Assembly: GCA_937930465.1 (NCBI GenBank)
Contig: CALGKV010000079.1
Location: 1 to 24,674, forward strand
Direction of reading: 5' to 3'
Source: Methanosuratincolales archaeon
GTDB taxonomy: Archaea > Thermoproteota > Methanomethylicia > Methanomethylicales > Methanomethylicaceae
DNA: 24,674 nucleotides
Position numbers and translations under genes: made by a program. The notes under the pieces are model-generated. The model saw only the letters and a list, made by a program, of their open reading frames with translations. It did no database searches and was not told where the DNA came from. Below, in pieces: positions 1,216 through 20,584 of the stretch (positions within the stretch are counted from its first letter, which is position 1; each line of letters begins with the position of its first letter).

Positions 1216-1403
1216 TCGGTAATGGATTCAGCGATAGGAAAATCACATAACGCAGGTAGATCCGGCGGCTTCTGAACCAGATTCCCCCGAAAGATTAGTG
1301 AGCCGAGGGTTATTGCCGAGAGCAGCAAATGAATCAATTGGAACTGTTGACGGTTTCCTGTGCGATGAAAATTCCAAGTGGCAAGAGGTCAAGCAGAATT
1401 GCC

Positions 1404-1417
1404 CAAAAAGCTTAATA
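1404..1417 (+). promoter_or_regulatory. Putative BRE+TATA promoter of the tkt-aro-phe-tyr operon
   Basis: CAAAAAG-CTTAATA resembles a purine-rich BRE plus TATA, predicting a TSS near 1440 and a ~210 nt 5' leader. Confidence 0.5.
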
Positions 1418-1457
1418 CGCTTGGCCACAGTGATAACCTTACAAAACGGTGGTTAAA

Positions 1458-1481
1458 GTGAGCCAATTCCAATATCTATAA
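1458..1481 (+). CDS. Candidate leader peptide MSQFQYL (uORF)
   Basis: GTG AGC CAA TTC CAA TAT CTA TAA, preceded by GGTGG (1448-1452) at 5 nt spacing. Confidence 0.3.
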   Translation: MSQFQYL

Positions 1482-1549
1482 CACGACTGGTCCCTTCTTG
1501 TTTAGACCAGTCGGTGCTCTCAGGCTCTGAGAGACTGAGTCCGGTTTTT
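1482..1549 (+). promoter_or_regulatory. Structured leader: alternative hairpins followed by T5
   Basis: Perfect 9-bp stem 1484-1492/1505-1513, perfect 7-bp stem 1517-1523/1527-1533, alternative pairing 1505-1511/1534-1541, and TTTTT at 1545-1549. Confidence 0.45.
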
Positions 1550-1650
1550 GGTATAGACGGAGTAAAGACGAAGGGCTCGGAAAAGACATTTGCACACAAG
1601 CAACACGCGGACACTGCGCCAGTGCGCCCTGATCTTGAGGTGCTTCATGT

Positions 1651-2508
1651 ATGAGCGGCACGGTCGAGCTGGCAGACCTAAAGCACTCTACCGACGTCCA
1701 GAAGGTGAAAGAGAGGATAAGGCAAGTCCAGCGCTCGCTCGTCGAGATGACCTCGTCTATGGGGGTGCACATCGGCTCCTCGCTCTCGTGCCTTGAGATC
1801 ATAGCTACGCTATACTTCCTGAAGATGCGGCACGCTCCGCATAGGCCACAGTGGCGGGAAAGGGACAAATTCATACTCAGCAAGGGGCACGCCGCGCCGG
1901 TGCTCTATGCTGTATTGGCAGAGGCGGGCTACTTCCCGAAGGAGGAGCTCCGAACCCTAAAGCGAATCAACTCCCGGCTGCAGGGCCACCCAGACCTGAG
2001 GACGCCAGGAGTTGACGCCCCATCAGGCTCGCTGGGTCAGGGGATCTCGATAGGCATCGGCATGGCTATGGCGGCGAAGATGCGCGGGAGCAGGAGCAGG
2101 GTCTACGTTCTTGTCGGCGATGGCGAGTGCGATGAGGGTCAGGTCTGGGAGTCGCTCATGACGGCAGCGCACCTCAGGCTGGACAACCTAGTCCTAATAA
2201 TAGACAGGAATGGCTGGCAGCTTGACGACAGGACGGAGGAGGTGAAGAGGAAGGTGCCGCTAAGGAGCAAGCTTGAGAGCTTCGGGTGGGAGACATACTC
2301 GATAAACGGGCACGACGTGGAGAAGATAGTCGAGGTCCTGGACGCCGCGGAGAGGGCGGAGCAGCCCGTGGCAATAATCGCCCACACAAAGAAGGGGAAG
2401 GGGATCTCTTTCCTAGAGGACTCGAACAAGGGGCACAAGCTGAAGCTGAGCGAGGACGAGTACCTGGCAGCGATCAAGGAGCTGGAGATGAGGGCAAAGT
2501 GCGCGTAG
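1651..2508 (+). CDS. tkt: Transketolase, N-terminal (TPP-binding) subunit
   Basis: HIGSSLS, DKFILSKGHAAP, LQGHPD, GSLGQG and the TPP motif GDGECDEGQVWE...IDRN. SD GAGGTG at 1637-1642. Confidence 0.95.
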   Translation: MSGTVELADLKHSTDVQKVKERIRQVQRSLVEMTSSMGVHIGSSLSCLEIIATLYFLKMRHAPHRPQWRERDKFILSKGHAAPVLYAVLAEAGYFPKEELRTLKRINSRLQGHPDLRTPGVDAPSGSLGQGISIGIGMAMAAKMRGSRSRVYVLVGDGECDEGQVWESLMTAAHLRLDNLVLIIDRNGWQLDDRTEEVKRKVPLRSKLESFGWETYSINGHDVEKIVEVLDAAERAEQPVAIIAHTKKGKGISFLEDSNKGHKLKLSEDEYLAAIKELEMRAKCA

Positions 2509-3410
2509 CGTTTGGGGAGGGGCTGCTCGAGCTGGGCAGCGAGAACGAGGACCTGGTGGTGCTGACGGCTGATGTCGCAAGGCCCACCCATGTAATAGGC
2601 TTCGGCGAGCGCTTCCCACACAGGTTCCTGGACGTCGGGATCGCGGAGCAGGACATGGTTGACATTGCTGCGGGGCTGGCCCTCAGCGAGAAGGTGCCCG
2701 TTGCAGTGGCGTTCGCTCCGTTCATGATGAGGGCATGGGAGCAGGTCAGGAGCACTATCGCAAGGTGCAGCCTGAACGTGAAGCTAGTGGGCACCCATGC
2801 CGGGCTTTCGGCGTCGGACGAGGGGGCGTCGCACCAGTCGCTAGAGGATGTTGCGCTGATGCGGGTGCTCCCCAACATGACCGTGGTCGTGCCAGGCGAT
2901 AGGGAGGAAGTCAAGGAGGCCACGCGTGCGATCGTCGAGAGCAAGGGGCCTGCCTACATGAGGATAGGCAGGGACGAGGATGCAAATTTCCTTCATGAAG
3001 GGTTCAGGCTAGGGAGGGCTACCGTGCTAAGAGATGGCTGCGACGTTGCCGTATTCTCCAACGGCTACATCACGTCGGAGGTGCTGGCTGCAGCTGAGGG
3101 GGCGCCCGTTGACGCAATGGTGGTCCATGTTCCGACTGTGAAGCCGCTGGACTCGGACACGGTAATCTCTGCTGTTAGGAGGACCGGGGCTGCCGTATGT
3201 GTGGAAGAGCACAGCATAATCGGGGGACTGGGCAGTGCCGTCTCGGAGCTGGTCTCCACAGAGTATCCGGTACACATAAGGAGGATGGGCGTCAGCGACA
3301 CTTTCGGCGAGTCCGGCACCTACAGGGAACTCCTGGATAAGCACCGCCTCAGCGCACCACACATCAGGGAGGCGATGGTAGAGGCAGCAAAAAGGAGGGG
3401 CAAGAGATGA
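2499..3410 (+). CDS. tkt: Transketolase, C-terminal subunit, 303 aa
   Basis: RVAFGEGL, DVGIAEQDMV, GTHAGLSASDEGASHQSLED, PAYMRIGR, VEEHSIIGGLGS. Start placed at GTG 2499, overlapping the upstream stop; the ORF-track 2286 start is a shadow extension. Confidence 0.93.
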   Translation: MRVAFGEGLLELGSENEDLVVLTADVARPTHVIGFGERFPHRFLDVGIAEQDMVDIAAGLALSEKVPVAVAFAPFMMRAWEQVRSTIARCSLNVKLVGTHAGLSASDEGASHQSLEDVALMRVLPNMTVVVPGDREEVKEATRAIVESKGPAYMRIGRDEDANFLHEGFRLGRATVLRDGCDVAVFSNGYITSEVLAAAEGAPVDAMVVHVPTVKPLDSDTVISAVRRTGAAVCVEEHSIIGGLGSAVSELVSTEYPVHIRRMGVSDTFGESGTYRELLDKHRLSAPHIREAMVEAAKRRGKR

Positions 3411-4387
3411 TCATTTTGCTTGAATTGGAATCAAAGCAACTGGAGGAAGCGCTCAGGGGAAGGTTTCGGAAGGTGAGGTACGGGGGAAAGGTAGCCTATG
3501 TCGCAACCCGGCAGGTCCCGGCAGAGATCCTAGACAGGCTGCACGGGGCAAGGATCGTTGACACAGGTAAACCGTACCAGCTGGCGAGCAGGGTCCTCCT
3601 GGAAGACGGCTCAAGGGTCAGGATAGGGGACGTGGAGTTCGGGGGCAAGGAGATCCAAGTCTGTGCTGGCCCTTGCGCTATCGAGAGCAGATCCCAGCTG
3701 CTGGAGGCGGCCCAGGCAGTAAAGGGCGCAGGGGCTTCGGTGCTCCGGGGAGGGGCGTTCAAGCCCAGGACTTCGCCGTACTCCTTCCAGGGCCTCGGAG
3801 AGGAGGGGTTGAGGCTTTTGAGGGAGGTGGCGGACGAGGTCGGCATGCCTGTTGTCACAGAGGCAACGACCCCAGAGCAGGTCCCTCTTGTTTCGGAGCA
3901 CTCTGACGCCATACAGATCGGGGCGAGGAACATGCAGAACTTCGAGCTCCTCAAGGCTGCGGGCAGATCCGGGAAACCCGTTCTGCTGAAGAGGGGGGCG
4001 TCCTCTACGATTGAGGAGTGGATCCTCGCAGCCGAGTACATACTTCTCGAAGGCAACTGGAACGTGATCCTTTGCGAGAGGGGGATCAAAAGCTTCGACA
4101 GCTCGACAAGGAATGTTCTGGACGTTGCAGCGATTGCGCTAGCGAAGGGGCTCACGCACCTGCCCGTCATCGCCGACCCGAGTCACGCAACAGGGAGGAG
4201 GGATCTGATCGCACCGGCTGCTATGGCTGCAGTTGCCGCAGGCGCGGACGGGCTCATCGTAGAGGTCCATCCCCGACCGGATGAGGCCCTTAGCGATGGG
4301 CCGCAGTCCCTCGATCCGAGTGGGTTCAGGAAGATGATGTCCGAGGTCGCCAAGGTCGCGAAGGCAACTGGAAGGGGTCTGGGTTGA
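3407..4387 (+). CDS. aroF: Type I-beta DAHP (DAH7P) synthase with short N-terminal ACT/ferredoxin-like extension
   Basis: AGPCAIES, RGGAFKPRTSPYSFQG, QIGARNMQN, LKRG, CERG, DPSH, EVHP. Confidence 0.95.
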   Translation: MIILLELESKQLEEALRGRFRKVRYGGKVAYVATRQVPAEILDRLHGARIVDTGKPYQLASRVLLEDGSRVRIGDVEFGGKEIQVCAGPCAIESRSQLLEAAQAVKGAGASVLRGGAFKPRTSPYSFQGLGEEGLRLLREVADEVGMPVVTEATTPEQVPLVSEHSDAIQIGARNMQNFELLKAAGRSGKPVLLKRGASSTIEEWILAAEYILLEGNWNVILCERGIKSFDSSTRNVLDVAAIALAKGLTHLPVIADPSHATGRRDLIAPAAMAAVAAGADGLIVEVHPRPDEALSDGPQSLDPSGFRKMMSEVAKVAKATGRGLG

Positions 4388-5472
4388 GGAAGATCGCAGT
4401 AAGTTGTGGGTGCCTCGAATACCCAGTCCTGATCGGTGCAGGGCTTCTTGGCACGGTCGGTGGAGCAGCCAAGGGACTCGCAGGGGACGGGAAGGTGGTG
4501 ATCATCACAGTACCTCCGGTCAGGGAGCTTTACCTTGAGAGCGTGGCAAGCAGCATGGACATTGAAGGGATCGAGCCTGTTGTCATAACCGTCCCGGACG
4601 GTGAGGAAGCCAAGACTCCCGAGACTTACCTATATGTTGTGGGCAGGATGCTGGACGCAGGGGCGGGCAGGGACTCGCTGGTCCTTTCCCTTGGAGGGGG
4701 GTGTGCAGGGGACCTCGCGGGGTTCGTAGCCTCGACATACATGCGCGGGGTCTCACTGGCGCACATCCCGACCACACTTCTAGCGCAGGTGGACAGCAGC
4801 ATAGGCGGCAAGAGCGCACTGAACCACCCAAGGGCTAAGAATCTAATAGGGAGCTTCCACCAGCCGAAGCTCGTCATCTCAGACACCCGGGTGCTCGCTA
4901 CATTGCCGACAAAAGAGCTGCGCTGCGGTCTAGCAGAGGTACTCAAGTACGGAGCCATACTTGACGGCGGACTCTTCCGGATTATCGAGCAGAGAGCTGG
5001 CGACATGCTGGCGCTAGAAGAAGGCGTGCTTGAGGATGTGATATGCAGATCGGCGGAGATCAAAGCCAGGGTCGTTTCGCTGGACGAAAAGGACAGGGGC
5101 GAGAGGATGCTGCTCAACTTCGGGCACACCGTTGGGCATGCCATAGAGGCGGCGACCTGCTACCGAAATTACAGCCACGGGGAGGCGGTAGCAATAGGGA
5201 TGTTGGCAGAGGCTAGGATCGCTGCGCAGCTCGGAATGATAAGCGATGGAACCGTGGACAGGATTGAGGCACTTGCCTCGCGGCTGGGGCTCCCGACGAG
5301 GGTCAAGGGTGTAACGGCGGAGGGGCTGATCGGGATCATGAAAGGCGACAAGAAAGCGGAGAGAGGAGAGATTAGGTTCGCGCTCCCGGACGCGATCGGT
5401 TCAGGCGCGGTGGTCGAGGTCAAGGACAGGGCATTGATAGAAGAGGCGATCAAGGGGGTGCTCGGCGATTAG
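4384..5472 (+). CDS. aroB: 3-dehydroquinate synthase
   Basis: GGGCAGDLAGF, PTTLLAQVDSSIGGK, KNLIG, AEVLKY, LNFGHTVGHAIE, HGEAVAIG. TTG start overlaps the aroF stop (TTGA). Confidence 0.96.
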   Translation: MRKIAVSCGCLEYPVLIGAGLLGTVGGAAKGLAGDGKVVIITVPPVRELYLESVASSMDIEGIEPVVITVPDGEEAKTPETYLYVVGRMLDAGAGRDSLVLSLGGGCAGDLAGFVASTYMRGVSLAHIPTTLLAQVDSSIGGKSALNHPRAKNLIGSFHQPKLVISDTRVLATLPTKELRCGLAEVLKYGAILDGGLFRIIEQRAGDMLALEEGVLEDVICRSAEIKARVVSLDEKDRGERMLLNFGHTVGHAIEAATCYRNYSHGEAVAIGMLAEARIAAQLGMISDGTVDRIEALASRLGLPTRVKGVTAEGLIGIMKGDKKAERGEIRFALPDAIGSGAVVEVKDRALIEEAIKGVLGD

Positions 5473-6154
5473 CGGCAGACCCTACAGGATATGCGCATCT
5501 GTGGTGGGCAAGGACGAGACGGAGATCGCAAGGGCAGCCCTGTCAGCCGAGGAGCTTGGCGCAGACCTCGTGGAGCTGAGGCTCGACACAGTTGAGGGGC
5601 TTGACCGAGAGAAGGTCAGGTCGGTTTTCAGGCTTGCTGCTGGCGTAGGCTTGCCAAAGATTGCGACGGTGATGCCTAGGAGCATATTTGGTGGCTTTGA
5701 AGGAAGCGCCGAGGAGCTCGGAGAGCTGCTACTCGAGGCTTCCAACCGTGCCGAATACGTCGACGTTGGGATTGAGTTGCTTGAAGGGCACGAAGGGATT
5801 TTAGAAAAGCTCTCGCAAAGGGCGAAAGTTGTGCTTTCCTGGCATGCAGACCGATTGCTATCGATCGATGAGATGAGGAGCTTCGTAAGGTCTTGGCGCA
5901 GGTGCAGCGTCTACAAGATTGCAATGCCCGCCAAGAGTGCCAGTGATAACTTGGTGGCTTTGCAAGGGTGCCTGGCTCTGGAGGGATTCAGGAGGGTCGT
6001 CTTCTGCTACGGCAGAGAAGGCATTCCTTCGAGGGTGATCTCTCCGGTCTTCGGATCGGAGTGGGCTTATGCCGCGCTCCGGAAGGGGCAGGAAACGGCG
6101 CCTGGGCAGATCGACATCGATATCCTCAGACGGATCAGGGGGGCGTTCGCTTGA
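5468..6154 (+). CDS. aroD: Type I 3-dehydroquinate dehydratase (start uncertain: ATT 5468 proposed, GTG 5501 is the first canonical codon)
   Basis: RICASV N-terminal strand, VELRLD, YVDV, SWH, YKIA (Schiff-base Lys), SRV, APGQ. Confidence 0.9.
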   Translation: MSGRPYRICASVVGKDETEIARAALSAEELGADLVELRLDTVEGLDREKVRSVFRLAAGVGLPKIATVMPRSIFGGFEGSAEELGELLLEASNRAEYVDVGIELLEGHEGILEKLSQRAKVVLSWHADRLLSIDEMRSFVRSWRRCSVYKIAMPAKSASDNLVALQGCLALEGFRRVVFCYGREGIPSRVISPVFGSEWAYAALRKGQETAPGQIDIDILRRIRGAFA

Positions 6155-7005
6155 CGACTAGCAGAACAAGGCTCTTCTGCCTGCTGGGGGATCCGGTCGA
6201 TCATTCGATCAGCCCACAGATCTTCACCAGGGCATTCGAGGCTTGCGGGATGGATGCGGCATATTTGGCTTTCAGAGTCCCTGGCAGTTCACTAGGCAAG
6301 GCGATCGCAGGCCTGAGGGCGCTCGGCGTGGCTGGGTGCAACGTGACGGTCCCGCACAAGATAGCAGTGATGAGCCATCTCGACTCATTGGACAGGGCAG
6401 CAATGGAGATCGGCGCGGCGAACGTGATCAAGATGGAAAATGGCATGGCTGTTGGCTACAATACGGACGGCGATGGGGCATTGATGGCTCTCAGAAGGAG
6501 CGATCTCTCGGGCAAGGTTGTTGCCTTGGTGGGCTACGGCGGCGCAGCCAGGGGGGTCGCCTATGCCATTGCATCATCAAAGGATCCGGGGGAGGTGGTG
6601 ATTTCAGGGAGGGATCGCGCGAAGGCAGAGTCGCTCGCCCAGCGGCTGGCGTCCCTCTTCGCGGTCAAGAGCAGATCCGTTAGCATTGAAGGGCTCAAGG
6701 AAGCCGCCCCAGATGTTCTGGTGAACGCGACCCCTCTTGGGATGAAGCCTTGGGTTGACAAATCCCCTGTGGATGCTGATGTCCTGCGCGCAGGGATGGT
6801 CGTGTTCGACCTTGTATACAACCCGACCGAAACCAGGCTGATCAAGGAGGCCAGGGCAATTGGCTGCACGACCATCGGGGGGTTGGACATGCTGGTAGGG
6901 CAGGCAGCTGCAGCTTTCGAGATCTGGACTGGAGAGAGGGCACCGTTGGAGGAGATGGAGAAGGCAGCATCGGAAGCCGTTGCAAAGGGGGGTGCAGGCG
7001 AATGA
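6151..7005 (+). CDS. aroE: Shikimate dehydrogenase, 284 aa
   Basis: LGDPVDHSISP, NVTVPHK, YNTDG, VNATPLGM, DLVYNP, GLDMLVGQA. TTG 6151 overlaps the aroD stop. Confidence 0.96.
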   Translation: MTTSRTRLFCLLGDPVDHSISPQIFTRAFEACGMDAAYLAFRVPGSSLGKAIAGLRALGVAGCNVTVPHKIAVMSHLDSLDRAAMEIGAANVIKMENGMAVGYNTDGDGALMALRRSDLSGKVVALVGYGGAARGVAYAIASSKDPGEVVISGRDRAKAESLAQRLASLFAVKSRSVSIEGLKEAAPDVLVNATPLGMKPWVDKSPVDADVLRAGMVVFDLVYNPTETRLIKEARAIGCTTIGGLDMLVGQAAAAFEIWTGERAPLEEMEKAASEAVAKGGAGE

Positions 7006-7868
7006 GGGGGACAGGCACGTCCTACGGCGCAGCAACAATAGTCAACGCGATGCCATCCGGTTTCGGCGGGGCGATCGGGGTCTGGCTCAAGGCAGTCGCT
7101 GAGGTGGAGATCACTGAAGACCCTGCGGTCGAGGCTGTTGCGGCAGACCAGGAGGTCGAGGATCTCTCTCTGATTTCCGAGTCATTCAAGGCTGTTACAT
7201 GTAGGTACGGGCTCGGCTGCGGGGCTAGGATCACCGTTCGCAGCGAGATACCCCCTGCAAGGGGGATGAAGAGCTCGAGCGCAGTATCGAATGCAGTAGT
7301 TCTGGCTACGCTGGACGCGCTCGGCATAGATTGCGGGGCGATGGAGGCTGTCCAGATGGGCGTGCAGGCCTCAATGAGGGCAGGCGTGACCGCCACTGGC
7401 GCGTTCGATGACTCCTGCGCAAGCCTCTTTGGCGGCGTGTTCTTAACAGACAACGCGGGGATGAAGGTCCTCAGGAGCTGGGATGCCGAGGAGCTGACAG
7501 CGCTATTCCTGGTCCCCGAGGAGAGGAGGTATTCGGGGAAGGTCGACTCGGAGCTTCTCCGGAGCTATGCGCGGGTGTCACTCATGGCTTTCAACGAGGC
7601 GATCGAGGGGAGAATCTGGCAGGCAATGCTCATCAATGGGATGGCAATGGCCCACGTCTTCGGGTTCGACGCCGGACCGATCCTGGAGGCGGTAAGGGAG
7701 GGGGCGGTATCGGCAGGCCTTTGCGGCAAGGGCCCGGCCATATGCGCGGTGACCAGGCCGGAATACGAGGGAGGGATCCTTGACTGCTGGAGGGGCAGAG
7801 GCTGCAAAACTATCAGGACCAAGATCAGGGGCTGCGCCGTATGCGGGGTGGACGAGCTTGGCAGGTAG
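7002..7868 (+). CDS. aroK: Archaeal (GHMP-family) shikimate kinase
   Basis: YGAATIVNA, SEIPPARGMKSSSA, TGAFDDSCAS, LCGKGPA. Confidence 0.93.
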   Translation: MRGTGTSYGAATIVNAMPSGFGGAIGVWLKAVAEVEITEDPAVEAVAADQEVEDLSLISESFKAVTCRYGLGCGARITVRSEIPPARGMKSSSAVSNAVVLATLDALGIDCGAMEAVQMGVQASMRAGVTATGAFDDSCASLFGGVFLTDNAGMKVLRSWDAEELTALFLVPEERRYSGKVDSELLRSYARVSLMAFNEAIEGRIWQAMLINGMAMAHVFGFDAGPILEAVREGAVSAGLCGKGPAICAVTRPEYEGGILDCWRGRGCKTIRTKIRGCAVCGVDELGR

Positions 7869-9156
7869 CAGGGCATTCGCGGTCGTGAGGGAGAGCGTGA
7901 TCGATGGGGCTGTCAGGGCACCCCCTTCAAAGAGTTTCACACAGAGGGCGGTGGCGTGCGCATTGATATCGGAGGGCAGGACCGAAATTTTGGGCCCTTC
8001 TACCTCGGACGACGGCAGGGTGGCAGCCAGGATCGCAAAAAGCTTGGGAGCGAGGATCAAGACAGGAAATGGGGGGTGGCTAGTGGATCCCCCGTCCAGA
8101 CCCGAGGCCCCTGAAGAGGTAGTAGACTGCGGCGGGTCGGCGACCTCAATGAGGATCTTCACCGCGATCGCGGCGCTTTCGGAGGGGGCGACCGTACTCA
8201 CAGGGGACGAGTCCCTCAGGAGGCGCCCTGTCGGCGAGCTTTTGGAGGCGATGAATGCGCTAGGCGCGAGGTGCTTCTCGACCAAGCACAACGGCCTACC
8301 TCCCGTAGTAGTGGAGGGGGGAGGGTTCAGGGGAGGAGATGTGTCGATCCGCGGGGACGTGAGCTCGCAGTACATCTCAGCGCTGATAGTTGCCTGCACA
8401 AGGGGGGATTCAGGGACCTCGATACAGGTGATCGGGAACCTGGAATCGTCAGACTATGTCAGGATGAGCATAGACGTCCTGAGGCAGTTCGGAGGGGCAG
8501 CTTTCCCAGACTTTGACGCCAAGAGATTCATAATCCCTGGAAGGCAGTCACTCAAGGGTTGCAGATTCGTCGTCGAGGGGGACTACTCCTCTGCTGCGTT
8601 CATAATCGCGGCTGGTGCGCTTGCAGGAAACGCCTCTGTCACCGGGCTCAACCCTAGAACGTCCCAGGGGGACCGGAGGCTGCTGGAAATAATCGGCAGG
8701 ATGGGCGGCACCGTGTCGGTCGAGGGCGGCGCCGTCACTTCGCTCCGCGATAGGCTCAGGGGGATCGAGGTAGACTGCTCGGAGGTGCCAGACCTAGTGC
8801 CGGTTCTGGGAGTGCTGGCCACTCAGGCAGAGGGGGTAACAGTTCTAAGGAAGACCGGCCGGCTCAGGATAAAGGAGAGCGACAGGGTGGAGGGCCTGGT
8901 GAGTATGATAAACAAGTTTGGGGGGATAGCCCGAGTAGATGGGCAGGACATCATAATAAAAGGCCCTACGCGCATGAACGGCACAGAGATCGATCCTAAG
9001 GGGGACCACAGGCTAGCAATGGCCGCTGCTGTAGCGGGGCTCATCGCAAAGGGCGAGACTGTGATCCATAATGCTGGGTGCGTTTCGAAGAGCTACCCCA
9101 GTTTCTTCTCGGATCTGAAAAGCCTAGGGGCGGGCGTAGAGGTGAGGATCGGATGA
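7858..9156 (+). CDS. aroA: 3-phosphoshikimate 1-carboxyvinyltransferase (EPSP synthase), 432 aa
   Basis: PPSKS, LRRRP, SSQYISAL, DYSSA, PDLVP, RIKESDR, DHRLAMA, KSYPSF. TTG 7858 has SD GGGGTG 7 nt upstream. Confidence 0.96.
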   Translation: MAGSRAFAVVRESVIDGAVRAPPSKSFTQRAVACALISEGRTEILGPSTSDDGRVAARIAKSLGARIKTGNGGWLVDPPSRPEAPEEVVDCGGSATSMRIFTAIAALSEGATVLTGDESLRRRPVGELLEAMNALGARCFSTKHNGLPPVVVEGGGFRGGDVSIRGDVSSQYISALIVACTRGDSGTSIQVIGNLESSDYVRMSIDVLRQFGGAAFPDFDAKRFIIPGRQSLKGCRFVVEGDYSSAAFIIAAGALAGNASVTGLNPRTSQGDRRLLEIIGRMGGTVSVEGGAVTSLRDRLRGIEVDCSEVPDLVPVLGVLATQAEGVTVLRKTGRLRIKESDRVEGLVSMINKFGGIARVDGQDIIIKGPTRMNGTEIDPKGDHRLAMAAAVAGLIAKGETVIHNAGCVSKSYPSFFSDLKSLGAGVEVRIG

Positions 9157-10256
9157 GCTTTGGGTTCGGCAAGGAATTCAGGGTGACGGTCTTCGGGGAG
9201 TCCCACGGCACTTGTGTCGGGGCGGTCGTCGAGGGATGCCCTGCAGGGCTCCCTTTGGAAGAGGGGGACATACAGCGCGAGCTCGACAGGCGCAAGCCAG
9301 GCGGGCGGCACTCGAGTGCAAGGGGCGAGCCGGACAGGATCAGGCTGATCAGCGGCATATGCGGCGGCAGGACCAATGGCGGCCCGATCACGATGCTGGT
9401 GGAGAACGAAGATGTGGACTCTTCGTGGTACGAAGAGAACAGGCACCTCCCGAGACCGGGCCACTCGGACTTCCCAGCATATGTGAAGTACGGCGGCATG
9501 AACGACTACAGGGGAGGCGGGTTTTTCTCAGGAAGGATGACCGCGCCCCTTGTCATGGGAGGGGCGGTGGCGAAGAGGCTGCTCTCAACTTTAGGAGTCA
9601 AGGTCATCGGCCACATCGTGCAGATCGGGAGGATCAGGCTATTGGAGCAGGTGAGCGACCAGGCAATAGAGGCTGCAACTTTGAGAGGCGCAATATGCGC
9701 GGACACGGGAACCGCAAGGGAATTTGAGGGCGAGATCGACAGGGTTGCCAAGGAAGGCGATTCGGTCGGCGGGGTTGTCGAATGCAGGGTACTCAACTTG
9801 CCAACGGGAGTCGGGGAGCCCTTCTTCGATTCGGTTGAGAGCACCATAGCGCACGGGGTCTTCAGTATCCCCGGGGTAAAGGGGGTGGAGTTTGGAGCAG
9901 GGTTCGGCTTCGCATCGATGAGGGGATCAGAGGCAAACGATACCATCGTCGCCAGGGACGGCAAGTTTGAGACGGAGACGAACAGGTCTGGCGGGGTGCA
10001 GGGGGGTCTAACCACGGGTATGCCGCTCTTGTTCAGGGTCGCCGTGAAGCCAACGCCTTCAATAAGGAAGGAGCAGAGGACAGTCGACATGAGGACGATG
10101 CAGGAGGCGACCATAAAAGTAGGCGGCAGGCACGACCCGTGCATAGCGGTGAGGGCTGTCCCGGTGGTCGAGGCGGTCGCCGCGGTCTGCATTGCGGACC
10201 TGATGGCAAGGGACGGAAAGATACCGAGGAGGATTGGTGGTAAGATTGGGAATTGA
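9153..10256 (+). CDS. aroC: Chorismate synthase, 367 aa
   Basis: FGESHG, RRKPG, RPGHSD, GGVQGG, RHDPC. ATG 9153 has SD GAGGTGA and an ATGA overlap with aroA. Confidence 0.97.
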   Translation: MSFGFGKEFRVTVFGESHGTCVGAVVEGCPAGLPLEEGDIQRELDRRKPGGRHSSARGEPDRIRLISGICGGRTNGGPITMLVENEDVDSSWYEENRHLPRPGHSDFPAYVKYGGMNDYRGGGFFSGRMTAPLVMGGAVAKRLLSTLGVKVIGHIVQIGRIRLLEQVSDQAIEAATLRGAICADTGTAREFEGEIDRVAKEGDSVGGVVECRVLNLPTGVGEPFFDSVESTIAHGVFSIPGVKGVEFGAGFGFASMRGSEANDTIVARDGKFETETNRSGGVQGGLTTGMPLLFRVAVKPTPSIRKEQRTVDMRTMQEATIKVGGRHDPCIAVRAVPVVEAVAAVCIADLMARDGKIPRRIGGKIGN

Positions 10257-11304
10257 GGAGATCAGGAAAGAGATAGACAAGATAGACGAGGAGATAGTGA
10301 GACTGCTGAACGAGAGGGTGGCGGCGTGCAAGAAGGCAGGCGTAGCCAAGGGAGGGATCGATATATTTGACGTGGACCGCGAAAGGAGGGTCTTGGAGAG
10401 AGTCGCATCCAGATCCGAGGAGGCCCCTATTGAGGGGGTACGTGCGGTCTACAGGGAAGTCATCTCGATGTGCCGCAGGGTCCAGAGGCCGATCACAGTC
10501 GCTTTCTTGGGGCCTGAGGGAAGCTTCTCCCACGAGGTGGCTTCTAAGCACTTCGGAACATCCTCGAAGCTTCTGCCGAGCAGAAGGATAAGGAACATCT
10601 TCACAGAAGTCGATCTTGGGGGGGCGGACTTAGGGGTTGTGCCATTCGAGAACTCGATCGAGGGCGCTGTCAATGACACCTTGGACTGCTTCGTCGAGTA
10701 CCCGGTCTCGATAGTCGGCGAGGCCCTCTTCAGGATCAACCAGAACCTGATCGTGGACCCAGAGGTGACCGCGCTCAGCCAGATAGAGAGGGTCTATTCT
10801 CACCCTCAAGCGCTTGCCCAGTGCGACGGCTACATCACGAAGCACCTTAACGACAAGGAGATCGTCGTCACCGAGTCGACAGCCAGGGCCGTGGAGCACA
10901 TCCTGAGGGACCCGAAGGGGGCAGCCATCGGCAGCAAGGTGGCTGCAGAGCTCAACGATCTGAAGATCTTCGAGGCAGGTATCGAGGACTCGCCAAACAA
11001 CTACACAAGGTTCGTCGTGATAAAGAAGGGGGGTGTTGCCGAGGGAGGGAACAAGACATCGCTGATACTCTCAATAGATCACGTCCCCGGATCTCTGGCT
11101 GCGGTGCTTAACTGCTTTGCTAAGAACGGAATCAATGTGACCATGATACTCTCGAGGCCGCTCTACATGAAGCCATGGGAGTACCTCTTCTTCATTGATT
11201 TTGAAGGGAATCTAGGTGATGAGAAATGCAGGAATGCAATGGAGGAACTAAAGAAGAAGACGAGGTTCCTGAGGATACTAGGAAGTTACTCAGAGTTGCT
11301 GTGA
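10234..11304 (+). CDS. pheA: Chorismate mutase / prephenate dehydratase with ACT domain
   Basis: AroQ-type N-terminus (IRKEIDKIDEEIVRLLNER), LGPEGSFSH, PFENSIEG, SHPQALAQC, NYTRF, C-terminal ACT domain. Start could be TTG 10234, GTG 10237 or TTG 10246. Confidence 0.95.
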   Translation: MVVRLGIEEIRKEIDKIDEEIVRLLNERVAACKKAGVAKGGIDIFDVDRERRVLERVASRSEEAPIEGVRAVYREVISMCRRVQRPITVAFLGPEGSFSHEVASKHFGTSSKLLPSRRIRNIFTEVDLGGADLGVVPFENSIEGAVNDTLDCFVEYPVSIVGEALFRINQNLIVDPEVTALSQIERVYSHPQALAQCDGYITKHLNDKEIVVTESTARAVEHILRDPKGAAIGSKVAAELNDLKIFEAGIEDSPNNYTRFVVIKKGGVAEGGNKTSLILSIDHVPGSLAAVLNCFAKNGINVTMILSRPLYMKPWEYLFFIDFEGNLGDEKCRNAMEELKKKTRFLRILGSYSELL

Positions 11305-12017
11305 TTGGGACCGGGAAGATGGGGAGGTGCCTCTCCACACTGCTCAGGGATCAAGCCGATGTAACGCTGCACAGCAGGGATCTCAGGAAGGGAAGGGCGA
11401 TAGCCAAGAGGGTCGGGGTGTGCAGTTCAGAAATCAAAGCGATCTCGGAGAGCGACGTGGTGATAGCCACGATGCCGACCGGGGCAATCCCAGGATTCCT
11501 AGAGGAGTCTGCAGGAAGCATGCGCCCCGGCGCAGCCTTCGTAGATGTCTCGTCCGTTAAATGTGGAGTGGTAGAGGAGGTCCTAAAGAGGCTGCCGGAA
11601 TGGGTCGGGTACGTCAGCATCCATCCGCTCTTCACCTCGCCCAAGGTGAAGGAAAAGGACGTGGCATTCATCCCAGTCAGGGGCACGGCGAACGTTTATA
11701 GGTTCTTGGAAACCCTCTCGAGGTCAGGGATGCGCCTATTCGAGACTTCCTCCGAAGAGCACGATCGTGCCACAGCCATAACGCAGGTGCTCCACCACTT
11801 TGCGCTGCTCACGATGGATAAGGTGCTCCAAAGGCACATGAGTTCCTCGGAAAAATTCACGACTCACAGCCTTAGGAAGACGCTGGCAGTGATGAGGCTG
11901 GTCAAGGGCAACCGCGACACAGCGGTAATGATCCAAAGGCTGAACAAATTCGGGAAGAGCATCAGAATGGAGTACATAAAGGAAGCCGAGGCGCTGGACC
12001 GAGAGTTGTCAGATTGA
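11226..12017 (+). CDS. tyrA: Prephenate/arogenate dehydrogenase (TyrA family)
   Basis: Rossmann motif RVAVIGTGKMG, DVSSVK, HPLF, EEHDR, QVLHHF. Start uncertain (ATG 11226 vs GTG 11301). Confidence 0.88.
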   Translation: MQECNGGTKEEDEVPEDTRKLLRVAVIGTGKMGRCLSTLLRDQADVTLHSRDLRKGRAIAKRVGVCSSEIKAISESDVVIATMPTGAIPGFLEESAGSMRPGAAFVDVSSVKCGVVEEVLKRLPEWVGYVSIHPLFTSPKVKEKDVAFIPVRGTANVYRFLETLSRSGMRLFETSSEEHDRATAITQVLHHFALLTMDKVLQRHMSSSEKFTTHSLRKTLAVMRLVKGNRDTAVMIQRLNKFGKSIRMEYIKEAEALDRELSD

Positions 12018-20505: not shown

Positions 20506-20584
20506 TGGCGGGCCCGCTGGGATTCGAACCCAGGTCCTGTGGCTCCGAAGGCCACCGCCATGATCCGGACTAGGCCACGGGCCC
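20506..20584 (-). tRNA. tRNA-Arg, anticodon TCG, intron-less, CCA encoded
   Basis: GGGCCCG/CGGGCCC acceptor stem, GCCT/TGGC D-arm, GTGGC-CTTCGGA-GCCAC anticodon arm, CTGGG-TTCGAAT-CCCAG T-arm, 3' GCCA. Confidence 0.97.

Follow-up and report, generated by a model that had tools for sequence, protein, structure and literature searches.

Bacterial attenuators of the trp, phe, his, and leu operons combine a short leader open reading frame (ORF), containing codons for the amino acids of the operon, with RNA hairpins placed directly behind it, and ribosome occupancy of these codons is the signal that is sensed. To our knowledge, amino acid sensing at the level of single operons is largely unknown in archaea, and no leader-peptide attenuation has been established there. 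We analyzed a 24,674-nt stretch of DNA (the window; contig CALGKV010000079.1 of assembly GCA_937930465.1) from a Methanosuratincolales archaeon, in which a short leader ORF with Phe and Tyr codons and two hairpins precede the aro operon for the synthesis of these amino acids. Ribosome occupancy of the Phe and Tyr codons is likewise the proposed signal here. The original prediction, made from this sequence alone, explained the leader as a terminator/antiterminator switch. Comparison with orthologous leaders suggests instead a translational recoding switch, namely a -1 frameshift triggered by scarce Phe- or Tyr-tRNA, and we give this reading slightly better than even odds (probability of about 0.55). 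Unlike the bacterial attenuators, the aro leader has a single Phe and a single Tyr codon, without runs, and lacks a conserved terminator/antiterminator pair and a hairpin-adjacent U-tract, while the sequence downstream of its peptide is itself an open reading frame.

Several described frameshifting systems share properties with this leader. The sensor frameshifts of RF2 (prfB, autoregulatory, +1), Ty1, and antizyme also employ a short frame-0 ORF that ends early and a stimulator resembling a Shine-Dalgarno (SD) sequence. In contrast to the RF2 type, the aro leader would have as its slow codon a sense codon specifying Phe or Tyr, the pathway end products, the shift would be -1 instead of +1, the shifted ORF in the family studied would be a spacer handing ribosomes to the next gene and not the body of a protein, and the host is an archaeon. 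In the bacterial dnaX-type cassettes and in fucA1 of Saccharolobus solfataricus, as in the aro leader, frames 0 and -1 overlap, an SD precedes the shift site by about 10 nt, and a stable hairpin follows it at 5–8 nt. However, the leader has no X-XXY-YYZ heptamer of the dnaX kind, and slippage of a single P-site tRNA next to an empty A site is proposed. The proposed role, amino acid sensing, is regulatory, whereas dnaX frameshifting sets a fixed product ratio and the purpose of that in fucA1, the single cellular -1 frameshift listed in a 2021 review of archaeal recoding, is unknown (PMC8211752). The hungry-codon "leftward" frameshifting of Escherichia coli (Gallant and co-workers; PMC5009743) likewise involves a -1 slip of peptidyl-tRNA at an A-site codon short of aminoacyl-tRNA; there it is an error in laboratory constructs, while in the aro leader it would be a conserved, built-in control element. 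According to a 2016 review, no hungry-codon frameshifting that gives starvation-specific trans-frame proteins was known (PMC5009743). Full-text literature searches did not find a description of an element of the kind proposed here.

Two overlapping frames in the aro leader

The leader was found upstream of tktN, the transketolase N gene that opens the operon, in every genome of the family where a tktN ortholog was found. After removal of duplicates, the data set comprised 19 family leaders with tktN downstream, supplemented with five leaders from four other families (L033 and L034 of f5, L035 of f6, L044 of f50, and L045 of f48). All records returned by a pattern scan of species-representative genomes were from Methanomethylicia, for example, Ca. 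Methanosuratincola and Ca. Methanomethylicus. The coordinates of the elements are listed in Table 1.

In the form GTG AGC CAA TTC CAA TAT CTN stop, the leader ORF is nearly invariant in the family. It is plausible that it is translated, since its variation is typical of coding sequences. Its start codons are ATG or GTG only (ATG in the other families), and its stop codons interchange between TAA, TAG, and TGA among the 19 orthologs. Codon 7 is CTA, CTC, CTT, CGT, or ATT, the Leu codon changes being synonymous. The order of Phe and Tyr is swapped between some lineages; thus, L015 encodes MSQYQFI, with TAC...TTT (Tyr then Phe) in place of TTC...TAT. The SD precedes the leader start codon by 4 nt and the first C-CAA site by 10 nt, and the SD-to-CCAA spacing is 10–11 nt in all five families despite differing intervening codons and SD-to-start distances.

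Downstream of the leader stop, the sequence up to tktN varies in length and shows little conservation, yet its -1 frame is open in all 19 leaders. Altogether, these leaders contain 43 stop codons in frame 0, 45 in frame +1, and two in frame -1, both directly in front of the tktN ATG. The end of the -1 ORF falls no more than 5 nt ahead of the tktN start and no more than 20 nt beyond it, usually as ATGA. The distance from the leader start to the tktN start ranges from 99 to 217 nt and equals 1 modulo 3 in 16 of 19 cases, and the sole indel in the leaders of five close species is 24 nt long. A conserved start codon is missing from the -1 ORF: the first canonical one in the window is GTG 1514, four of the 19 leaders have no ATG, GTG, or TTG anywhere in this frame, and the position of the first one varies widely in the rest. 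When each of 14 lineages was represented by a single leader, the -1 frame comprised 415 codons upstream of any ATG, GTG, or TTG, and none of these was a stop (P ~6e-10, given the 4.97% stop frequency of the other frames). An excess of third-position substitutions in the -1 frame was not found among the five close species (24/33/31), which indicates selection on the frame being translatable and not on the peptide. On the 5' side of the C-CAA sites the -1 frame is closed, by TAA at 1454-1456 in the genus and by TAG immediately before the first CCA in L033; therefore, ribosome entry must occur at the CCAAT sites. Frame-0 and -1 ORFs that overlap, the downstream one having no conserved start of its own, form the arrangement of a -1 cassette.

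The motif C-CAA-T[AT][CT] is present in all five families (f1, f5, f6, f48, and f50). The codon preceding CAA varies (AGC, TTC, TAC, CAC, or CGC) with its last base always being C, and the codon following CAA is for Phe or Tyr in every lineage compared. T[AT] is invariably followed by C or T, which keeps Phe/Tyr in frame 0, even though the -1-frame codons that begin with this base differ. In the proposed layout, the Gln codon occupies the P site and the Phe/Tyr codon the A site, and the -1 frame reads CCA ATT CCA ATA, with the Ile codons ATT and ATA being invariant. Of the two Gln codons, CAA is the less used (23%), and a gene for tRNA-Gln(UUG) is present. Frame 0 ends 2–4 codons past the shift site in the family and up to 13 codons past it in the other families. 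Phe and Tyr codons at the A-site position before a Phe/Tyr operon would suit a sensor-type switch, in which frameshifting would depend on tRNA charging. The two-frame architecture, the C-CAA-Phe/Tyr sites, the hairpin P1 following the leader stop, and the spacing of these elements are established by comparison.

We infer that ribosomes slip at these sites, that slippage rises on starvation, and that it controls the output of the operon. Initiation would take place at GTG 1458, guided by the SD at 1448-1453. With Phe- and Tyr-tRNA plentiful, MSQFQYL would be read and the ribosome would stop at TAA 1479, just before P1. If the A site is empty at Phe 1467 or Tyr 1473, peptidyl-tRNA-Gln would slip back by one base, from CAA to CCA, the new A-site codon would be AUU or AUA (Ile), and the ribosome would continue in the -1 frame. 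The SD about 10 nt upstream and P1 5–8 nt past the Tyr site occupy the positions of known -1 stimulators and may serve as such. The shifted ribosome would translate the 65-codon spacer ORF through P1, the second hairpin P2, and a run of five T (T5), and would stop at TGA 1652-1654 on the tktN ATG, where a termination-reinitiation event would hand it over to tktN. It would probably also keep transcription coupled along the leader. The model gives a fitting direction of regulation, with scarce charged Phe/Tyr-tRNA raising the expression of the pathway. The restriction of the putative sensor to Phe and Tyr codons also fits, because anthranilate synthase (PF00425) was not found in three genomes of the genus (G000, G002, and G005), including two complete Methanosuratincola genomes; the genus may lack tryptophan synthesis from chorismate.

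If the frameshift model is correct, the expression of the pathway would be set directly by charging of the cognate tRNAs through recoding, which would give archaea a functional equivalent of bacterial attenuation based on a different physical principle. Hungry-codon frameshifting would then have a regulatory role in nature for the first time, and the single cellular -1 frameshift documented in archaea (PMC8211752) would be joined by another. The model would also explain the truncated or misplaced starts that gene callers assign to tktN, as well as to hisZ described below, in these lineages.

A number of observations weigh against frameshifting. C-CAA-UUC and C-CAA-UAU do not conform to the canonical slippery heptamer X-XXY-YYZ, so that only P-site re-pairing would be possible, and the slipped tRNA-Gln(UUG) would lose the central one of its three base pairs to a C-U mismatch. 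The sequence NNC-CAA-Phe/Tyr is not depleted in the long ORFs of the genome (23 observed versus 25.6 expected); since it is not avoided in genes, the motif alone should not be strongly shift-prone. Hairpin P1 is weak or absent in three of the 19 orthologs, and no equivalent hairpin was seen in the other four families. The tktN gene has an SD and an ATG of its own. A TTG is located about 21 nt past the leader stop in L033-L035, and the leader stop of L045 is overlapped by a GTG (GTGA); in both cases, reinitiation could feed the long ORF. Finally, the near-total nucleotide conservation of the leader, including GTGAG and the SD flank, could reflect a bound protein or RNA.

The start codons just mentioned, together with TTGA in L012, are consistent with the absence of any frameshift: the leader would then be an ordinary regulatory upstream ORF, and the -1 ORF would be translated by reinitiation, or from an AUU or AUA start, in coupling with tktN. 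Termination-reinitiation at overlapping genes is known in archaea, and the invariant ATT and ATA codons of the -1 frame would suit non-canonical initiation. However, canonical starts are missing from the -1 ORF of four family leaders and scattered in the rest. The demands of frame 0 and of re-pairing, and not those of the -1 frame, account for the C that precedes CAA and the pyrimidine that follows T[AT]. Besides, stalling at Phe or Tyr would lower expression on starvation, which is the wrong direction for a biosynthetic operon. We consider this explanation unlikely.

The conservation of the leader could also mean that the invariant block extending from the SD to CCAATTCCAATAT serves chiefly as a binding site, either for a DNA-binding repressor, such as a relative of the helix-turn-helix (HTH)-like domain fused to TktN in other families, or for an RNA-binding protein, the coding features being secondary. 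The synonymous sites of leader codons 2–6 are invariant in 18 of 19 orthologs, while TktN is only about 70% identical; CCAAT is directly repeated, another conserved box (TTG[CT]CCA) adjoins the TATA-like element in three families, and the fused domain has weak HTH matches. On the other hand, the motif is unique in the 1.0-Mb assembly (74% complete), where further copies of CCAATNCCAAT or of the promoter box were chance matches inside genes only and no regulon was visible. Binding would leave unexplained the open -1 frame, the variation of start and stop codons, and the Phe/Tyr swap, while the frameshift model accounts for nearly every invariant base of the CCAAT repeat block. A role mainly in binding appears improbable, but binding could coexist with frameshifting.

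In the promoter region, the TATA-like sequence TTAATA is found at 1412-1417, and the usual spacing between TATA element and transcript start puts the predicted start near 1440. In the 19 family leaders, the promoter-like box TTGCCCAAAA..TTTAATAC is nearly invariant, and a related box, TTGTCCA...TTTAT, is present in families f5 and f6. Its part TTGCCCAAAA (1399-1409 in the window; TTGTCCA in f5 and f6), which adjoins the TATA-like element on the 5' side, is kept across three families and could be an operator for a transcription factor acting besides the leader.

Hairpins, the T-run, and attenuation

The elements on which the original prediction was built are all present in the sequence. These are segments A (GACTGGTC, 1485-1492) and B (GACCAGTC, 1505-1512), the perfect 9-bp stem of 1484-1492 with 1505-1513 (A:B, corresponding to P1), CTCTCAG at 1517-1523 and CTGAGAG at 1527-1533 (P2), segment C (ACTGAGTC, 1534-1541), T5 at 1545-1549, the leader stop TAA at 1479-1481, and the Phe codon at 1467-1469. 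A leader ORF with a Phe and a Tyr codon before a Phe/Tyr operon proved to be conserved, and sensing of charged tRNA by its ribosome is plausible. In the classical ribosome-mediated attenuation that was proposed, a ribosome at the stop covers A, and B:C together with T5 terminates transcription, whereas stalling at the Phe codon leads to A:B and read-through. All the required elements occur in the window, and the conservation of both the leader ORF and hairpin A:B agrees with such a scheme. It is nevertheless very improbable in view of the fate of B:C, the T-run, and the reading frame.

Of the two alternative helices, A:B is conserved and co-varies, but B:C is not maintained in the orthologs. 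Hairpin P1 directly follows the leader stop in 16 of the 19 orthologs, with arm sequences that differ and yet remain complementary (CGACTGGTC/GACCAGTCG in the window, GGACCGGCT/AGCCGGTCC in L006, and AACCAACTACC/GGTAGTTGGTT in L013). Compensatory changes in its arms were identified in L006 and L007, and for ten leaders from outside Methanosuratincola the P1 cells were paired in 88%, compared with 25%–50% in slid controls. P1 starts 8 nt past the Tyr codon in the window and 5–8 nt past it in the family. The P2 hairpin shows compensatory changes within the genus (A-U to G-C in L003; two pairs altered on both sides in L007) but is absent in L006 and in other genera. As to B:C, it comprises 5–6 bp in three close species, is weaker in two, and is absent in L006, L007, and all other genera. 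In both L006 and L007 the P1 arms changed and C did not follow, and B:C of L002 is weakened by uncompensated changes.

Both folds were computed. The minimum free energy fold of the 82-nt segment contains A:B and the second hairpin side by side at -28.9 kcal/mol with z = -1.38, so the fold energy is not unusual by shuffling alone. The B:C-extended hairpin did form when positions up to +36 of the leader ORF were blocked, as they would be by a ribosome at the stop, but it was about 7 kcal/mol weaker (-19.4 versus -26.6).

T5 begins 3 nt past the proposed B:C stem and is found in four of the 19 leaders, all from close species, where it could act as an archaeal oligo-T terminator, while six leaders have no run of at least four T. 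Archaeal RNA polymerase terminates at oligo-T and does not need a hairpin. A scan for bacterial promoters and terminators gave no match here, and no terminator-like site was scored. A search of Rfam yielded no match at the gathering score in the window and none up to E = 10 in the region 1150-1750. Moreover, the entire region 1482-1563 lies within the conserved open -1 frame to tktN, in which T5 reads GTT TTT (Val-Phe). Attenuation explains neither this frame, nor its ATGA end, nor the constraint on C-CAA. The terminator/antiterminator function is thus not upheld by the comparison, although T5 may add a risk of oligo-T termination for untranslated leaders in some species.

The P1 loop (1493-1504) is pyrimidine-rich, CCUUCUUGUUUA, and the leader past T5 (1550-1600) is purine-rich in all close species, this compositional asymmetry being conserved among them. 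A pseudoknot between the loop and the purine-rich downstream tract was rejected because its pairing was no better than in shuffled sequences (fractions 0.44–0.85).

Fusion lineages and the hisZ gene

The five leaders from other families share the design of the aro leader, namely an SD, ATG or GTG, one to three codons, and C-CAA-TAC or C-CAA-TTC; in four of them the C-CAA-Phe/Tyr site occurs twice. In f5, f6, f48, and f50, the -1 frame runs into an HTH-like domain of about 100 residues fused to TktN, for which weak winged-helix matches were obtained (HTH_45 and HVO_A0114; E about 0.1). In L033-L035 and L044, no ATG, GTG, or TTG was seen close behind the shift site on inspection by eye; L045 has a GTG eight codons downstream. 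Public gene calls of the fusion lineages are cut to 270–281 aa, and a protein search for full-length HTH-TktN fusions returned two truncated calls only. The CCAAT[AT][CT] site was not found upstream of tktN in L040-L043 and L046-L053; in L040, the conserved N-terminus of TktN is closely preceded by an in-frame ATG. A DNA-binding domain joined to a transketolase subunit is unusual, and this domain might recognize the conserved TTG[CT]CCA box beside the promoter.

A second candidate for frameshifting is hisZ, the first gene of the his cluster, located outside the window on another contig of the same assembly (C32, ~8868-8930). In 29 of 30 family loci (L057-L086), its start region contains an SD and ATG, GTG, or TTG, followed in frame 0 by x-AGG-AGG-AAT-TTA-[GC]TT-CA[CT]; the short ORF in the genome under study reads M-E-R-R-N-L-V-H... 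(AGG AGG AAT TTA GTT CAC). Frame 0 stops 0–22 codons past this site. The conserved HisZ N-terminus FTRFQTPKGFRD and the remaining ~375 codons are in the +1 frame, which is closed by TAG just upstream in most genomes. Expression of hisZ therefore seems to depend on a +1 frameshift in which the slowly decoded codon is one for His. The likeness to RF2 is close here, with AGGAGG, 6 nt, and [GC]UU-CAY, a His codon replacing the stop or rare codon. This RF2/Ty1-like pattern supports a general strategy in these archaea. That Methanomethylicia and some other Thermoproteota place hungry-codon frameshift switches on amino acid operons, -1 on aro and +1 on hisZ, is a tentative proposal, to which we assign somewhat less than an even chance.

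The leaders of two leuA/cimA-type genes of the same genome looked ordinary, and its argG lies inside a gene cluster. In the absence of comparative data, generic genome screens for a short ORF together with a shifted long frame that has no start gave too much noise; a stricter screen recovered the aro leader but missed the his site. In most family genomes, two direct repeats, GTGGGAA(A) (C32, ~8790-8830), shortly precede the TATA-like element in the promoter of the his cluster and are a candidate binding site for a his regulator.

Features and genomic setting of the leader

Table 1. Positions of the leader elements and of the operon in the window
Feature	Position	Strand	Basis and conservation
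Archaeal promoter-like element TTGCCCAAAAAGCTTAATAC	1399..1418	+	Upstream of the leader in nearly all orthologs
Shine-Dalgarno GGTGG(T)	1448..1453	+	GGTGG invariant in 19/19 family orthologs
Open -1 frame, 65 sense codons + TGA	1457..1654	+	Ends on the tktN ATG (ATGA)
Leader ORF GTG AGC CAA TTC CAA TAT CTA TAA = MSQFQYL + stop, frame 0	1458..1481	+	19/19 orthologs
Tandem proposed shift sites, C-CAA-TTC (1463-1469) and C-CAA-TAT (1469-1475)	1463..1475	+	Kept in all lineages
Hairpin P1 (= A:B), 9 bp, 12-nt pyrimidine-rich loop	1484..1513	+	Folding and orthologs
Hairpin P2, CTCTCAG / CTGAGAG, 3-nt loop	1517..1533	+	Genus-specific
Segment C (1534-1541) and T5 (1545-1549)	1534..1549	+	Present in the window; B:C and T5 not conserved
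tktN Shine-Dalgarno GAGGTG	1637..1642	+	Read from the sequence; similar GGAGG/GGGGG before ortholog tktN
tktN (transketolase N)	1651-2508	+	Pfam matches
aro operon	1651..12017	+	Pfam matches; split transketolase to prephenate dehydrogenase

The operon, which is complete in the window, encodes the N and C subunits of transketolase, 3-deoxy-D-arabino-heptulosonate 7-phosphate (DAHP) synthase, 3-dehydroquinate (DHQ) synthase, DHQ dehydratase, shikimate dehydrogenase, shikimate kinase of the GHMP (archaeal) type, 5-enolpyruvylshikimate-3-phosphate (EPSP) synthase, chorismate synthase, chorismate mutase-prephenate dehydratase, and, up to its end at 12017, prephenate dehydrogenase. The upstream neighbor is a diphthamide-synthase-like ORF ending at 1215, and the leader is located in the 435-nt gap that follows. 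Methanosuratincola petrocarbonis LWZ-6 is in pure culture (PMC12244365). Elsewhere in the window, an ordinary tRNA-Arg(TCG) gene is located at 20506-20584 on the minus strand.

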